The notes: generated from the sequence alone by a model not told the origin. 7,698 bases of DNA from a virus (IMGVR_UViG_2734482594_000023); one strand, 5' to 3'; shown: positions 553-7,681, numbered from the stretch's first letter. A program made the numbers and translations.

Positions 553-642
553 AGCGCGGCGATTTTTTTGATACCGATTTGCATTTCATTTGATACCGCT
601 GAAAAACGCCGATACGCAACTTATTTGATACTAAATCGGCGC
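553..642. repeat. Cluster of short direct and inverted repeats (GATAC x4; CGGCGAT / ATCGGCG) downstream of mom; candidate transposase-binding sites at a Mu-like prophage end
   Basis: GATAC occurs at 570-574, 592-596, 611-615 and 627-631. TTGATACCG is repeated at 568-576 and 590-598. GCGCGGCGATTT (553-564) is near-inverted to AATCGGCGC (634-642), and GAAAAACGCCGA (601-612) resembles Mu end-type GAAAAACGCGAAA motifs as I recall them. Confidence 0.35.
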
Positions 643-677
643 TTTTCTTTTGAGTTTTAGAATGAGTTTTTAAGCGT

Positions 678-1415
678 TCATTCACTCTCTTTCAAACCAG
701 TTTTAACTGTTTGTGGTTTTGGGTAAGGCTGGACTTTGAATAGCTTTGTGTTAAGGCGTTTTCTGGCTCTCTTGTCCAGAAACCGGATGTAACGAAACTG
801 ACGGAATTTATGAACACTGGCTCTGTCGATATTAGCCCGCAGATGTTCACCTCGCTGTCCTCCTCGTTTGATTGCATTCTTGCAAATCTCGTGATACCAC
901 TCGCCATCAAGTTCATAGAATGTTGTTTCATGACTGCCTACATAATCAAAATTGCTTGCCTGGTACACGACACCAAGACAGCCACAACGCTCATCTGCAA
1001 ACGACTGAACCCACTGCACCTGCGGATAAAGTTGTCTGATTAGTTTGAGCGCGTAACTGATTGCCCTTGATTCGGAGTTTCTCGGCATACAGTCATGCAG
1101 CCATAACCGGTTAAGCTCCATATATTCGCGGTTCTGCGTGCCAGTTACGACGCGTGCACCATTGTTTGGATTAAGGGCATAACCCCATTGCATTACGCCA
1201 ACCAGCTCCCGTTCTGAAAATATGCCCAGATGAAGGTAGGAATTATTTACGAAACGATGGCTGTAATGTTTATTGACGACGACCAGCCGGGCCAGCCAGC
1301 AACTTATTGTCTCAACCCGTAACTCACGGGAGCCATAACCGACGATATTGTCGTTATAGTGAATAAGTTCAGGCGTGCTGATGATACGGGATGTAACTTG
1401 CTTTCTGTTCCCCAC
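678..1415 (-). CDS. mom: Mom-family DNA modification protein (adenine carbamoylmethylation, acyltransferase-like); start codon uncertain
   Basis: The ORF lies immediately downstream of, and overlapping, a Com-type zinc-finger gene, as in phage Mu. The proposed GTG start at 1415 gives 245 aa, close to Mu Mom (about 231 aa as I recall), has AAGGAAA 7-9 nt upstream, and sits in the 3' arm of a hairpin. The ORF track extends to a GTG at 1610, which I regard as over-extended; an ATG at 1577 is an alternative. Confidence 0.75.
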
Positions 1416-1569
1416 GACAGGATTTCCTTGTGTATGTGGGGTGCTCTGTGGCGCTCTGAGATGTGATTTGATTGAGGGTTTTACAGCGCGGACATTTAAC
1501 TTCCAGATAACTGAAGCTGGCTCGTGCCAGTAGCTTGTTACAATGTCGGCACCGTATGTTTCGATACAT
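1369..1569 (-). CDS. com: Com-family zinc-finger translational activator of mom
   Basis: The 66-aa product [33 protein letters not shown]... has a CxxC...CxxC zinc-finger layout like Mu Com. AGGAGG lies 10 nt upstream of the ATG at 1569, and the 3' end overlaps the mom start region by about 46 nt. The track's TTG start at 1614 is rejected. Confidence 0.8.
1410..1441 (-). promoter_or_regulatory. mRNA hairpin sequestering the mom GTG start, with the Shine-Dalgarno in the loop (putative Com-responsive translational operator)
   Basis: On the minus strand, CCCCAC (1441-1436) pairs with GTGGGG (1415-1410). The 20-nt loop contains AAGGAAA, and the GTG at 1415-1413 lies in the 3' arm. Confidence 0.45.
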
Positions 1570-1610
1570 GGCCGCATAACCTCCTGCTTTGTTGTTGATA
1601 TCTTTATCAC

Positions 1611-1702
1611 TCAATCGATCGACAAAAACGATCGATTTGATTTATTTAATTGATACAACAAATAACACGAAATGTCATTAGCGAAAATTTATGAGTTTGA
1701 TC
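1611..1702. promoter_or_regulatory. AT-rich divergent control region upstream of com/mom with clustered Dam (GATC) sites and an inverted repeat
   Basis: GATC occurs at 1617-1620, 1630-1633 and 1699-1702. The imperfect inverted repeat TCAATCGATCG-ACAAAAA-CGATCGATTTGA spans 1611-1640. In Mu, mom transcription is controlled by Dam methylation of upstream GATC sites (OxyR binding) and by C-protein activation. Confidence 0.4.
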
Positions 1703-2903: not shown

Positions 2904-4440
2904 TTACGCGTTATTCACTTCCACCACGATACTGTCAATCAGTACCGGGTAAGTCGCATTTTTAGTGATATCGGTCACGCGCAACTTGTCTGCCGTAAAC
3001 GTGCCGACCGGAGACTGCGACAGCATGAATGGTGTCCCGTCCTTACCATCAANNNNNNNNNNNNNNNNNNNNNNNNNNNNNNNNNNNNNNNNNNNNNNNN
3101 NNNNNNNNNNNNNNNNNNNNNNNNNNNNNNNNNNNNNNNNNNNNNNNNNNNNNNNNNNNNNNNNNNNNNNNNNNNNNNNNNNNNNNNNNNNNNNNNNNNN
3201 NNNNNNNNNNNNNNNNNNNNNNNNNNNNNNNNNNNNNNNNNNNNNNNNNNNNNNNNNNNNNNNNNNNNNNNNNNNNNNNNNNNNNNNNNNNNNNNNNNNN
3301 NNNNNNNNNNNNNNNNNNNNNNNNNNNNNNNNNNNNNNNNNNNNNNNNNNNTGAGCCTTGCCACCTCCGGCAGCCCAACCCTGTGGTGTCAACCGTCCTT
3401 CAGACTCAGATGCCCGGTAAGCAAATAGCGTACTCATCGTCGTGGTGTCTGCGGGTGGCGTGGACGGTTTTGATGGTGTATCAGGTGACGGCTTCTCATC
3501 CGGTGGTGTCACGGTCTGCCCACGCATCAGTTCAGCCGTGCGCCCTGCATGGAGCATAATAGCTGAGGCCAGACGGTCTGAAATGACGCCCCTGCGTGCC
3601 CATGAGCTGAAATGGCTGTCACGCTGTGTCGAAACAAAACTGCCCTGGGTTCGGGATGCTGCACCGTAATACCCGACAGCCACAATATCCGGGTCTTCCG
3701 CCGGAGCATTCGTTGGCGTGCNNNNNNNNNNNNNNNNNNNNNNNNNNNNNNNNNNNNNNNNNNNNNNNNNNNNNNNNNNNNNNNNNNNNNNNNNNNNNNN
3801 NNNNNNNNNNNNNNNNNNNNNNNNNNNNNNNNNNNNNNNNNNNNNNNNNNNNNNNNNNNNNNNNNNNNNNNNNNNNNNNNNNNNNNNNNNNNNNNNNNNN
3901 NNNNNNNNNNNNNNNNNNNNNNNNNNNNNNNNNNNNNNNNNNNNNNNNNNNNNNNNNNNNNNNNNNNNNNNNNNNNNNNNNNNNNNNNNNNNNNNNNNNN
4001 NNNNNNNNNNNNNNNNNGCGGTCAAACGAATCCGGTAACGGCAGCCCCTCGCCGTAGGCCATGCCATTTGACTGACCCGCGAGAATGACAACAAAGTAAT
4101 ATTCCGGCTCTGAACTGCTGCCATTCGTGCTACCGGAAGGCCCGGCGTTATCCGGTGCATTCCAGTCGGAGGGCGTGAGCGTTCCGGCCACGTCAGATGT
4201 GATTGGAATGATGCCAGTCACGCCTGAACTGGTGATTTCTGCACTGGGATTACCGGATACCGGCATTACCCATAATGGCTCTTTCGTGCTGAAGCGGATC
4301 ACGCAGTCTGCGAAGGTGATCCCCCCTTTATTACCCGAAGGGCGGAAAGGGCTTTCAATAAATGCCACCGTGCCACCGGCAACCTTGACTGAAAACTCTC
4401 CGGGCATGGCGGAGAGCATTTTCCACTTGGAGTCTGACAT
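2904..4440 (-). CDS. NanS-like sialate O-acetylesterase (SGNH/SASA-type) with an N-terminal extension and a C-terminal Pro/Thr-rich linker plus extra domain; frame ambiguous across masked blocks
   Basis: The N-terminal part (4440->4018) contains YYFVVILAGQSNGMAYGEGLPLPD, the GQSN nucleophile block of SASA/NanS esterases. After the mask, TNAPAEDPD...GYYG...SHFSSWARRGVISDR continues the esterase in a different frame, followed by TPPDEKPSPDTPSKPSTPP and a C-terminal region ending at the TAA at 2904. The span (1537 nt) is not a multiple of 3, so either a frameshift lies in 3722-4017 or the masking is not length-exact. Confidence 0.65.
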
Positions 4441-4516: not shown

Positions 4517-4544
4517 AAAAAAGCGTCACGGTACTTTTGGTGAC
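4517..4544 (-). terminator. Weak hairpin plus U-run at the invertase stop codon
   Basis: On the minus strand, GTCAC (4544-4540) pairs with GTGAC (4529-4525) across a 10-nt loop, followed by GCTTTTTTG. The stem is short. Confidence 0.25.
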
Positions 4545-5136
4545 GGAGCTGGTGAGGCAGGAAAATAACGATAAAGGNNNNNNNNNNNNNNNNNNNNNNN
4601 NNNNNNNNNNNNNNNNNNNNNNNNNNNNNNNNNNNNNNNNNNNNNNNNNNNNNNNNNNNNNNNNNNNNNNNNNNNNNNNNNNNNNNNNNNNNNNNNNNNN
4701 NNNNNNNNNNNNNNNNNNNNNNNNNNNNNNNNNNNNNNNNNNNNNNNNNNNNNNNNNNNNNNNNNNNNNNNNNNNNNNNNNNNNNNNNNNNNNNNNNNNN
4801 NNNNNNNNNNNNNNNNNNNNNNNNNNNNNNNNNNNNNNNNNNNNNNNNNNNNNNNNNNTTGTCCGTAATGCTGCGGAAGTTAACGCCGCGTTGCCGGAGT
4901 TCTTCTGTTAAAAGGACAAGGTGCTGCATACTGCGTCCAAGGCGATCCAGTTTCCAGACCAGCAGGGTATCCCCTGGCCGGAGTCGCTTTAATGCGCGTT
5001 TAAGTCCGGGACGCTCCCTTGTCTTACCGCTTATTCTGTCTTCGAAAAACAGCTCACATCCTGCACATTCCAGCGCATTTCTTTGTAGCGCCGTATTCTG
5101 GTCATTTGTTGACACCCTGATATACCCAATCAGCAT
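4526..5136 (-). CDS. Site-specific DNA invertase, serine recombinase (Gin/Pin/Cin/Hin family); C-terminal frame differs from the ORF track
   Basis: The N-terminus MLIGYIRVSTNDQNTALQRNALECAGCELFFEDRISGK...LLVWKLDRLGRS is a canonical resolvase/invertase catalytic domain. Left of the mask, the frame reading LYRYFPASPAPSPKVP* (stop at 4528-4526) matches the Hin-type C-terminal helix-turn-helix tail (STLYRYFPAS). The track frame ending at 4474 is rejected. The span is not a multiple of 3 if the masked block is length-exact. Confidence 0.8.
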
Positions 5137-5430
5137 NNNNNNNNNNNNNNNNNNNNNNNNNNNNNNNNNNNNNNNNNNNNNNNNNNNNNNNNNNNNNNNN
5201 NNNNNNNNNNNNNNNNNNNNNNNNNNNNNNNNNNNNNNNNNNNNNNNNNNNNNNNNNNNNNNNNNNNNNNNNNNNNNNNNNNNNNNNNNNNNNNNNNNNN
5301 NNNNNNNNNNNNNNNNNNNNNNNNNNNNNNNNNNNNNNNNNNNNNNNNNNNNNNNNNNNNNNNNNNNNNNNNNNNNNNNNNNNNNNNNNNNNNNNNNNNN
5401 NNNNNNNNNNNNNNNNNNNNNNNNNNNNNN

Positions 5431-5613
5431 TATATCCAGGATATCAGGCTGGGAGCAGAGAACAGGCAGGTAATGTACGGTGGGGCATATTACTCTGCGT
5501 ACGGTAATGTTATGGCAGGCCTGCAGATTGACAGTAAAGTTGATGCTTCAAACGATTTTATAGCATTCAGACCCCTGCAAAAATTAGTCGGAGGTACATG
5601 GATTACGGTATCT
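5431..5613 (+). CDS. Alternative tail-fibre C-terminal tip (S'v-type variable exon), 5' end masked
   Basis: The frame is open from the mask edge to the TAA at 5611-5613: ...GAENRQVMYGGAYYSAYGNVMAGLQIDSKVDASNDFIAFRPLQKLVGGTWITVSQL*. Its tail shares the RPLQ..L..G.W.T motif with the minus-strand fibre tip (...[22 protein letters not shown]). Confidence 0.6.
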
Positions 5614-5673
5614 CAGTTATAAATAGTCAGTAAATAATATATTTTAAAACAGATTTATTTCCAGGAGGATTTT

Positions 5674-6195
5674 ATGGAACTAAAAAATATAACCCGTTAT
5701 TATCCTGAAAATATGCCATATGGTAATAATGTTCAGTATTTCCAGAGTGAAGATGGTAAGGATTTCTACGAATCCCTGCCATTATTCACCAAAAAATATA
5801 AACTTTGCATAACACCTGACAGCGGCGTTATCTGCTCAATATCACAGGACGCCTCGGCGCTGTATCCTGCGGGGTTTTCTGTGGTTGAGGTCGATGAACT
5901 CCCTGAAGGCACGGATATTTCAGGAAACTGGAAGTTTGATAATGGCATAATCTCCCGTATTCCGGTTAACTACGCAAGAAAACTGGAAGCAATGCGCCAG
6001 TCATATCTTAATCAGGCATATGAAAAAATTAATGACTGGAGAACGGAGCTACAACTGGGCACCATCAGCGATGAAGACAGAGCAGCACTTACCCAATGGA
6101 TGGCATACATCAGTCAGGTGAAGAAAATGGAACTACCCGCCATTAAAACAGAAGCTGAATTTAACGCCATTAAATGGCCTGAGCAGCCACAGTAA
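5674..6195 (+). CDS. Tail fibre assembly protein (Tfa / Mu U / P2 G-like chaperone)
   Basis: ATG at 5674 has AGGAGG 5 nt upstream. The 173-aa product sits 60 nt after the alternative fibre tip, and its size, position and C-terminal region (...WMAYISQVKKMELPAIKTEAEFNAIKWPEQP) fit the Tfa family. Confidence 0.75.
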   Translation: MELKNITRYYPENMPYGNNVQYFQSEDGKDFYESLPLFTKKYKLCITPDSGVICSISQDASALYPAGFSVVEVDELPEGTDISGNWKFDNGIISRIPVNYARKLEAMRQSYLNQAYEKINDWRTELQLGTISDEDRAALTQWMAYISQVKKMELPAIKTEAEFNAIKWPEQPQ

Positions 6196-6198
6196 TAA

Positions 6199-6218
6199 AG
6201 AAGGCCGGAAGGCCTTCT
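6199..6218. terminator. Perfect hairpin between convergent tfa and tail-fibre genes (probable terminator for the fibre transcript)
   Basis: AGAAGGCC (6199-6206) pairs with GGCCTTCT (6211-6218) around a GGAA loop. On the minus strand the stem is followed by UUAUUACU. It lies 8 nt beyond the fibre stop and 3 nt beyond the tfa stop. Confidence 0.5.
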
Positions 6219-6226
6219 GAATATCA

Positions 6227-7108
6227 TTATATACTTGCAGCCGTCACCCATGCTCCATTTAACAGATACTGCAACGGCCGGTAATACACGCCGCCGACGT
6301 TATCTGCCGTATTCTTACCGACATCCTGTACTTTAATTCCGGTAAGAACATTGCCGCCCCCCAGATTCAGATCCCAGCTTTCCCATGTTCCGGGCATATG
6401 TGCGGTCACCGACCCCAGTCTTATGGCGGTTACTGTTCCTGATGAGATAGTGATATCCTGCGTCCCGTCAAAGGGAACACCATTAATTGTGTGGGCATTT
6501 GCCAGCCTGTTCGCGGCAACGGCGGTGCCGTCCGATGGCAGGGCATTCGCCGCCCTGTTTACCGTTTCCCGTAAACCGACGTTATCGATAAAAGCCCCTT
6601 TATCCGGAATGTCTGCGCCGTTCTGCTCCCTGCGCAGGTAACGGTTATCACCTTCGCTTTTGCTGTAAACATCCAGATTATTACGGGCGGTTCCCTTATT
6701 CTCCAGGTCGGCGAGATTCTGATCCTTCGCCAGGGCATTAACGTCAGCGGGACCAAGACTGTTTTTTGTGGCAAGCGTCCCCAGACCAAGATAACCACGG
6801 GCCAGACGCTGGGCCTCCGCACCGGCATCAGCAATTTCTTTCAGGTTATTTTTCCGGGAAAAGGCATTCGCAGCGATAATGGCTTTAATGGACAGCGTAA
6901 GCTGGTTTAACTGCGCCTTATCCGGCTGAATACTGGCTTCAGCCAGAATATTCAGCAGTTCGGCCTGGAGAATATTCAGCCAGTCCTGACCAATCCAGCT
7001 GATACCTTTTTGTCCGTCACCTTCGGTAAACCAGGTGGTGGTATTACTCTGCGCCGGTGCCAGCGCAGGCATATTCGCCACGCCGGAATTATTATCAACA
7101 TGAAACAT
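6227..7108 (-). CDS. Tail fibre protein (constant N-terminal part plus variable C-terminal tip in its current orientation)
   Basis: ATG at 7108 has GAGGAGA 8 nt upstream, 15 nt after the stop of the upstream baseplate gene. The 293-aa product has an N-terminus [18 protein letters not shown]...WFTEG...[15 protein letters not shown] that I read as the fibre type found in Mu/P2-like phages (from memory), and the crossover site falls in the codons for FIDNVGLRE. Confidence 0.8.
6566..6591. other. gix/hix-like 26-bp recombination (crossover) site for the serine invertase
   Basis: TTCCCGTAAACC-GA-CGTTATCGATAA compared with Mu gixL TTCCTGTAAACC-GA-GGTTTTGGATAA (as recalled) matches at 22 of 26 positions with the same half-site/2-bp core layout. 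It lies inside the tail-fibre ORF at the constant/variable junction. Confidence 0.6.
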
Positions 7109-7123
7109 TAAATAGTCTCCTCT

Positions 7124-7681
7124 TCATGGCTNNNNNNNNNNNNNNNNNNNNNNNNNNNNNNNNNNNNNNNNNNNNNNNNNNNNNNNNNNNNNNNNNNNNN
7201 NNNNNNNNNNNNNNNNNNNNNNNNNNNNNNNNNNNNNNNNNNNNNNNNNNNNNNNNNNNNNNNNNNNNNNNNNNNNNNNNNNNNNNNNNNNNNNNNNNNN
7301 NNNNNNNNNNNNNNNNNNNNNNNNNNNNNNNNNNNNNNNNNNNNNNNNNNNNNNNNNNNNNNNNNNNNNNNNNNNNNNNNNNNNCGAGGGCTTCATCCGG
7401 TATTTATTTCCGGCATAACGCTGTCGCTCCGTGAGGGTGGCTCCGGCCATATCACACTCGGGAAGCCCGAGATAACGCTCCCAGTCTTCCAGCAGCAGGC
7501 GCGACGTGTCAGGGAAACGCTCGGCAAGCAGCTGTTTACCCGTCCAGGATACACGCGCTGTCGAATGACTGAGGCCCAGACATAATGATGCCAGTACGGA
7601 TGACGGACGCTTGTCCCATGCCAGCCCGTCAGGCAGTAACTGCAACAGGGCGCGCTGATGCGGGGTCAGGGTTACAGCCAT
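7124..7681 (-). CDS. Phage baseplate/tail protein (P2 gpI / Mu gp48-like, DUF2313-type); C-terminal half masked
   Basis: ATG at 7681 has AGGAGA 7 nt upstream. The N-terminus MAVTLTPHQRALLQLLPDGLAWDKRP...LLEDWERYLGLPE resembles the gpI/gp48 family. The gene sits directly upstream of the tail-fibre gene, as in P2 (I-H-G) and Mu (48-S-U). The TGA at 7126-7124 is in frame only if the masked block is length-exact. Confidence 0.65.
   Translation of the reverse strand: MAVTLTPHQRALLQLLPDGLAWDKRPSSVLASLCLGLSHSTARVSWTGKQLLAERFPDTSRLLLEDWERYLGLPECDMAGATLTERQRYAGNKYRMKPSXXXXXXXXXXXXXXXXXXXXXXXXXXXXXXXXXXXXXXXXXXXXXXXXXXXXXXXXXXXXXXXXXXXXXXXXXXXXXXXXXXXXXP

Follow-up and report, generated by a model that had tools for sequence, protein, structure and literature searches.

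By protein, the closest relatives of the locus described here are found in bacteriophages Mu and D108. In Mu, Dam methylation of GATC sites prevents the repression of mom by OxyR, and the C-protein box reads TTAT-N6-ATAA, followed by a T-run and a TAAGAT −10 element. The Mu mom promoter is weak, depends on the phage C protein, and is subject to repression by Fis (PMC3378877). The target of Mu Com is a short hairpin with CC(N2–3)GAG in its loop; immediately 3′ of it follows a “translation inhibition structure” in which the GUG start codon of mom is paired (PMC6483171). The Mom protein of Mu moves glycine from Gly-tRNA(Gly) onto N6 of adenine in double-stranded DNA, and the adduct then rearranges to the carbamoylmethyl form (PMC13219725, published in 2026). 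Nine residues are needed for this activity (W48, which is a dimer residue, H58, Y59, R111, S124, D149, R151, Y159, and W181), and deletion of a Mom-specific HTH-like insertion (175–209) abolishes it (PMC13219725).

Here, we analyzed a stretch of viral DNA of 7,698 nt (IMGVR_UViG_2734482594_000023; hereafter, the window), in which a complete Com/Mom DNA-modification module with overlapping genes had been predicted from the sequence alone. In our view, the locus is very probably a functional-looking Mu-type com-mom operon that would act as it does in Mu, and it is the last operon before the right terminus of a Mu-like transposable prophage of E. coli.

Gene structure of the com-mom module

Both reading frames lie on the minus strand and are undamaged, and the module is complete at the place given for it in the original prediction, the span of which (678–1640) comprises the two genes, the com ribosome-binding site, and a GATC palindrome. 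The mom gene (678–1415, minus strand) begins with GTG at 1415–1413 and encodes a putative GNAT-fold, tRNA(Gly)-dependent adenine aminoacyltransferase of 245 aa. The com gene (1369–1569, minus strand) begins with ATG at 1569 and encodes a predicted zinc-ribbon translational activator of mom of 66 aa. As read from the sequence, com directly precedes mom and shares the first 47 nt of the latter (1369–1415, minus strand), read in a different frame, and mom has the Shine-Dalgarno sequence AAGGA at 1429–1425. The corresponding overlap in Mu is 50 nt, and the predicted Mu-like arrangement, a Com-type gene running into the 5′ end of a Mom-type gene, is thus what we find. The com ribosome-binding site, AGGAGG (1585–1580, minus strand), is located 10 nt 5′ of the ATG, and the block AAAGCAGGAGGTTATGCGGCCATG that forms it is kept in every allele of the window clade. 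The RefSeq gene models on 100% identical DNA, WP_000528246.1 (mom) and WP_014334043.1 (com), have the same 245-aa and 66-aa products that the prediction had proposed as genes. We collected relatives of the module from genomes (12 loci) and viral contigs (80 loci), most of them with com overlapping mom; this overlap occurs at most of the 70 distinct related loci.

A list of ORFs made by a program held longer versions of both genes, of 310 aa (from GTG 1610) and 81 aa (from TTG 1614). The 81-aa ORF was rejected as Com: the Pfam match and the alignment with Mu both begin at ATG 1569, which has a Shine-Dalgarno sequence. The 310-aa ORF (678–1610) was rejected as Mom on the ground that its upstream open frame varies between alleles. 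If Mom were made as the longer protein, from GTG 1610 or from ATG 1577, by reading through com in another frame, a Com-dependent internal start would be unneeded, and the window allele does have 65 open codons in the mom frame ahead of GTG 1415. However, the open stretch is 27 codons long in alleles that are 96–97% identical and 8 in Mu, and because this extension is not conserved, the 310-aa ORF is best regarded as an accident of the window allele. Furthermore, only 2 nt separate ATG 1577 from the Shine-Dalgarno sequence, residue 96 of the long ORF is the first that the Pfam match covers, and Mu Mom without its first 10 residues is still active (PMC13219725). We give almost no credence to a longer Mom and take the start to be the GTG at 1415, which aligns with the GUG start codon of Mu mom inside a conserved stem.

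Identity of the Mom and Com proteins

In profile searches, the 245-aa product matched Pfam PF25680 over the whole model (positions 1–202 of 202; E-value 1.6e-77, 260.2 bits against a cut-off of 27.1) and PHROG 1384, “Mom-like DNA modification protein” (E-value 2.8e-83). It shared 78% amino acid identity with Mu Mom and matched the crystal structure of that protein, PDB 8bv8, with an E-value of 2.4e-123; the larger ORF is therefore Mom-like, as originally claimed. No NCBIfam model matched it, although RefSeq names the protein. To compare functional residues, we converted the numbering of the mutagenesis report, which starts at an ATG ten codons upstream of the GUG, and found that all nine residues defined by mutagenesis are identical in the window Mom (W40, H50, Y51, R103, S116, D141, R143, Y151, and W173). 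The HTH-like insertion is also present, with 28 of its 35 residues identical to those of Mu. The adenine modification named in the original prediction can be refined in one respect, in that the donor in Mom chemistry is now known to be glycyl-tRNA(Gly) (PMC13219725). A homolog using another donor, whether a different aminoacyl-tRNA or an acyl-CoA, or forming another product would leave a different adenine adduct, and the Mom-like GNATs of other phages are highly diverged, at 25–50% identity. Against this, the window protein combines 78% identity to Mu Mom with retention of every tested active-site residue and of the essential insertion, which makes a change of chemistry very unlikely.

The 66-aa product matched Pfam PF10122, Zn_ribbon_Com, with an E-value of 1.3e-12 (47.4 bits; cut-off 22.9), and the PHROG families 6417 and 13819, “translational regulator” and “gpCom”, with E-values of about 1e-13 (1.5e-13). 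It shared 44% identity with Mu Com, and the cysteines C7, C10, C26, and C29 are invariant; the zinc finger read into the sequence by the original prediction is thus retained, with all four cysteines kept on accurate alignment. The NCBIfam search returned only a sub-threshold zinc-finger match, and a sequence search of the PDB found no relative, only weak matches to eS27 zinc ribbons (E-value ≥ 0.01).

Both genes are under strong purifying selection, with a dN/dS of about 0.07. For mom, comparison with alleles of approximately 95% DNA identity gave a ratio of 0.06–0.08 in the part that does not overlap com. Outside the overlap, com showed 6–9 synonymous differences between alleles and 0–1 non-synonymous ones.

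RNA elements of translational control

A predicted Com-target hairpin is located at 1441–1454 on the minus strand, with the loop CACAGA and the motif CC-ACA-GAG at 1451–1444. Its stem consists of G1454-C1441, a C1453·A1442 mismatch, G1452-C1443, and C1451-G1444, so that three of the four pairs are formed in this copy. It adjoins a predicted translation-inhibition stem-loop (1410–1441, minus strand), in which CCCCAC (1441–1436) pairs with GUGGGG (1415–1410), including the mom GUG. As in Mu, the Com motif thus sits in a hairpin loop, and the stem in which the mom start codon is paired follows immediately on its 3′ side, which supports the translational control that the original prediction had attributed to the module. 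In the minimum free energy fold, the inhibitory stem comprises 6 bp, the GG within the Shine-Dalgarno sequence AAGGA is paired in an inner helix, and the Com hairpin is reduced to a 2-bp remnant. The fold energies, computed on the single sequence, were not better than those of shuffled sequences (z-scores of −1.2 to −0.4), as is expected of elements so short. Because these single-sequence statistics are not significant, structural support comes from comparison.

An alignment of 21 distinct com-mom junctions (alignment A4) provided that comparison. All four pairs of the Com hairpin change on both sides among the 21 junctions; 95% of the cells are paired, a proportion reached by none of 500 shuffles and set against 23–58% in controls in which the positions were slid. 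The sole unpaired cells are the C·A at position three of the stem, seen in five sequences that belong to the window clade; a synonymous change gives one allele (L019) a U-A pair there. The five core pairs of the inhibitory stem (columns 21–25 with 46–50) are almost invariant, being kept in 19–21 of the 21 sequences, and its sixth pair (columns 20–51) covaries (UA 10, CG 9, UG 1). Column 20 corresponds to nucleotide 1441 of the window; in the Com hairpin, this nucleotide forms the outermost base of the stem on the 3′ side and covaries with column 7. This one nucleotide pairs in either helix, and the hairpin and the inhibitory stem therefore compete for it. Such competition fits the opening of the start-codon stem by Com binding, and the covariation at 1441 may point to a simple strand-exchange switch as the means of opening. 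The predicted RNA switch is conserved in the window module.

These elements also bear on the function of Com. RefSeq calls the protein a “Com family DNA-binding transcriptional regulator”, and this name is the sole support for the reading that Com regulates the transcription of mom by binding DNA. The name is generic; moreover, Mu Com is an RNA-binding translational activator (PMC6483171; annotation of the Mu record), and in the window and its relatives both the Com RNA motif and the start-codon stem are kept and covarying. A transcriptional role is hence highly improbable, and we regard Com as the predicted translational activator of mom.

An Rfam search of the leader assigned it to no family and gave one chance-level match, to IS102 (E-value 0.81). 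A scan for the CxxC...CxxC pattern found no com ORF in six distinct Mom-encoding junctions (L003, L079, L081, L084, L085, and L094). Four of these (L079, L081, L084, and L085) have a differing junction sequence, with GATC-containing repeats right at the mom start.

Upstream region and transcriptional control

Upstream of com, a GATC palindrome, AATCGATCG-N7-CGATCGATT, occupies 1613–1637 and contains two Dam sites (1617–1620 and 1630–1633). This 25-bp palindrome aligns with GATC sites 2 and 3 of Mu, and the counterpart of the third Mu site reads TATC. The pattern is expected to occur by chance 0.01 times in the window, which is otherwise poor in GATC (11 sites, against an expectation of 23). 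The GATC-N9-GATC cluster upstream of com is kept in enterobacterial relatives despite their diverged flanking sequences, and it is absent from this position in distant marine relatives. The distance from the last GATC to the com ATG is 47 nt in the window as opposed to 83 nt in Mu.

The C box, T-run, and TAAGAT of Mu have no counterpart in the alignment with Mu or in the window clade. A search of the minus strand for sigma-70-like promoters found none, and inspection by eye revealed no convincing motif shared by the com upstream region and the intergenic regions of the complete prophage; the com-mom promoter was accordingly not located by alignment, sigma-70 search, or motif inspection. The window encodes no late activator of the C/Mor family. 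In complete copies of this phage, the gene for a 140-aa protein with 40% identity to Mu C stands before the lysozyme gene, the same position as that of Mu C; it is therefore plausible that the phage has an activator of this family whose specificity differs. The transcriptional layer appears to be only partly Mu-like, with the GATC cluster kept and the C box absent. Because the palindrome is near the com start and the C box is absent, Dam and OxyR may act on the core promoter or the leader. Taken further, this would mean that the window clade has rebuilt its transcriptional gate, with Dam/OxyR acting on the core promoter or leader and a diverged C recognizing a different site, in addition to the strand-exchange switch via 1441; we put this forward tentatively, as a possible but somewhat doubtful account.

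Downstream of mom, a 13-nt inverted repeat ending in a T-run (601–647, minus strand; 92% complementary) is a candidate operon terminator. It lies 30 nt past the mom stop codon, has a long loop (21 nt), and overlaps the phage-end repeats. On the plus strand, divergent from com, an 86-aa ORF (1859–2119; RefSeq hypothetical protein WP_000571916.1) matched nothing in Pfam, NCBIfam, PHROGs, or PADLOC. Just upstream of this ORF or inside its 5′ end are two sigma-70-like sites.

Prophage context

The right end of a Mu-like prophage lies at 550–631 of the window. In more than 15 independent insertions, the sequence is common up to ...GCGCTATA and then diverges, which places the phage terminus at window position 550 and shows random transposition. 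Outside five masked runs of N, the window matches the rightmost 7 kb of a prophage of strain AF39 at 99.6–100% identity; this prophage is complete, measures 39 kb, splits dcyD, and has com-mom as its last genes. The AF39 prophage encodes MuA/MuB-type proteins, Kil, Gam, an activator of the Mor/C family, Mu-type head and tail proteins, and a Gin-like invertase.

The termini of this phage, 5′-TGTAACC ... GCGCTATA-3′, have a right end in TA-3′ as opposed to the canonical CA-3′, and the target duplication is 4 bp as opposed to the 5 bp of Mu. The duplicated sequences are TGTA in AF39 (by comparison with the empty dcyD site), ACTG in strain DLI.5a, and AACA in IMG genome 2548876695, and there are two further probable 4-bp pairs. 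Termini and duplications were read at window position 550, at 39499/39500 of L095, and in L097 and L103 together with L038. A literature search for a TA-3′ terminus with a 4-bp duplication found no description. At the right end, three direct repeats with a consensus of approximately TTTGATAC occupy window positions 559–631, and in AF39 the distance between the terminus and the start of the first TTGATACC is 19 nt at the right end and at the left end alike; these repeats are presumably transposase-binding sites. Positions 1–549 hold a C-terminal fragment of an IS66-family transposase (ISEc22/ISEc8-like) that is rearranged relative to intact copies, and the phage end is inserted into this remnant. 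The junction between the two is absent from complete E. coli RefSeq genomes.

Other genes of the window were also inspected. A 684-aa protein encoded between the invertase gene and com (2904–4440, partly masked in the window; 11305–13359 in L001) has a SASA carbohydrate/sialate O-acetylesterase domain and a DUF6645 domain. It resembles the NanS-p-type esterases of Stx prophages. Genes for DUF1378 (2577–2759) and DUF826 (2287–2541) proteins come after the esterase gene. PADLOC found nothing among the genes neighboring com-mom. Region 4526–7108 contains a Gin-like serine invertase and an apparent invertible tail-fiber segment: the plus strand carries a tail-fiber assembly gene (5674–6195) and a C-terminal tail-fiber fragment, a 293-aa tail-fiber gene (7108–6227) faces the opposite way, and an inverted repeat of approximately 140 bp (88% identical) is formed by 6456–6596 and a stretch that is masked in the window. 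The runs of N are at 3053–3351, 3722–4017, 4578–4858, 5137–5430, and 7132–7384. Their lengths differ from those of the AF39 sequence (for example, 296 N against 694 bases), and reading frames across them are therefore meaningless.

Distribution and state of the module

Out of 5426 complete E. coli genomes, 233 carry the 1.3-kb module at ≥90% identity, and 15 records have it at ≥99% identity. In the phage collection, only two Stx-phage records, both with an inserted Mu-like element, matched at the DNA level. Identical DNA in RefSeq E. coli genomes is already annotated as Mom and “Com family”, and the module is therefore already known, real but ordinary.

Of this phage, some E. coli genomes contain just a right-end remnant, with intact com-mom and the esterase, DUF1378, and DUF826 genes. 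Strain DLI.5a (L097) has a 10-kb right-end remnant in ypdB, and in strain 600029 (L098) a remnant interrupted by IS1 sits within a Qin-like prophage. Since such copies exist, the expressibility of the window copy depends on phage parts outside the window. The genes could accordingly be intact but silent, the window being a decayed right-end remnant that lacks a C-type activator and the module a relic. In keeping with this, remnants that retain com-mom are known from the two strains above, the window stops inside baseplate genes with the rest of the phage unseen, and the phage end abuts a rearranged IS66 remnant. However, the 7.1 kb of phage DNA, with its tail-fiber, invertase, and baseplate genes, is 99.6–100% identical to the complete AF39 prophage, and both com and mom are undamaged and under strong purifying selection. 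A silent relic is thus unlikely.

Proposed mechanism and meaning

Gene identity, intactness, catalytic and zinc residues, RNA elements with their covariation, purifying selection, and phage context are all observed at this locus. Every sequence-level feature that defines the Mom and Com families is present, with the exception of one C·A mismatch in the hairpin stem, and nothing contradicts the identification.

The following scheme takes each biochemical step, and all of the transcriptional control, from Mu. The com-mom mRNA would be made late in lytic growth from a weak, activator-dependent promoter in the AT-rich region of approximately 250 nt upstream of com; transcription would probably have Dam methylation at the GATC palindrome as its gate and a phage protein of the C/Mor family as its activator. 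Com would be translated from its own strong ribosome-binding site. Meanwhile, mom would at first remain untranslated, its GUG and part of its Shine-Dalgarno sequence being paired in the stem-loop. Com would then bind the CC-ACA-GAG loop of the adjoining hairpin and, as nucleotide 1441 is common to the hairpin and the inhibitory stem, its binding would open the stem and let ribosomes start at GUG 1415. The resulting Mom, a putative GNAT-fold dimer, would move glycine from Gly-tRNA(Gly) to adenine N6 in double-stranded DNA, and the adduct would rearrange to N6-carbamoylmethyl-adenine, which may block many restriction endonucleases. DNA of the induced phage is accordingly predicted to resist many restriction enzymes.

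The com-mom module is textbook phage counter-defense and carries little weight as a discovery. It is of use in annotation, as a marker for the right end of a Mu-like transposable prophage. Support by covariation for the Com hairpin, and for the nucleotide that it has in common with the inhibitory stem, is of modest added value, and the comparison shows that the promoter architecture of Mu is not conserved across com-mom modules.

Comparison with known systems

The gene order of the window is the same as in Mu (AF083977, Mu_52/Mu_53), with the 47-nt overlap in place of 50 nt. In both, the mom GUG lies in a CCCAC/GUGGG stem, a Com hairpin with a CC-N3-GAG loop stands directly 5′ of this stem, a GATC cluster is found upstream of com, and com-mom is the last operon before the right phage end. 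At 78% (Mom) and 44% (Com) identity to the Mu proteins, all key residues are kept. The differences from Mu in promoter layout, hairpin mismatch, and length of the inhibitory loop are minor variants. Com is 4 aa longer than its Mu counterpart, and Mom is 14 aa longer, of which 2 aa are inserted close to the N-terminus and 12 aa form a tail at the C-terminus. In the window, six G-C-rich pairs make up the inhibitory stem and its 20-nt loop contains an inner helix over the Shine-Dalgarno sequence, whereas the Mu loop is 11 nt, and the Com hairpin, unlike that of Mu, has a C·A mismatch. Two clustered GATC sites, 36 nt closer to com, take the place of three in Mu; the C box, T-run, and TAAGAT of Mu are absent from the window; and four extra genes lie between the invertase and com, whereas Mu has none between gin and com.

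Phage D108 (NC_013594) has the same module, and its Mom is 76% identical over 95% of the length; D108 belongs to the Mu-type clade, and the window clade forms a separate branch. The stand-alone “Mom-like” GNATs of Aeromonas PX29, Arthrobacter, Vibrio ICP1, and others fall in the same Pfam/PHROG family but are only 25–38% identical, no com partner was noticed in their records, and the window gene is instead clearly of the Mu type.
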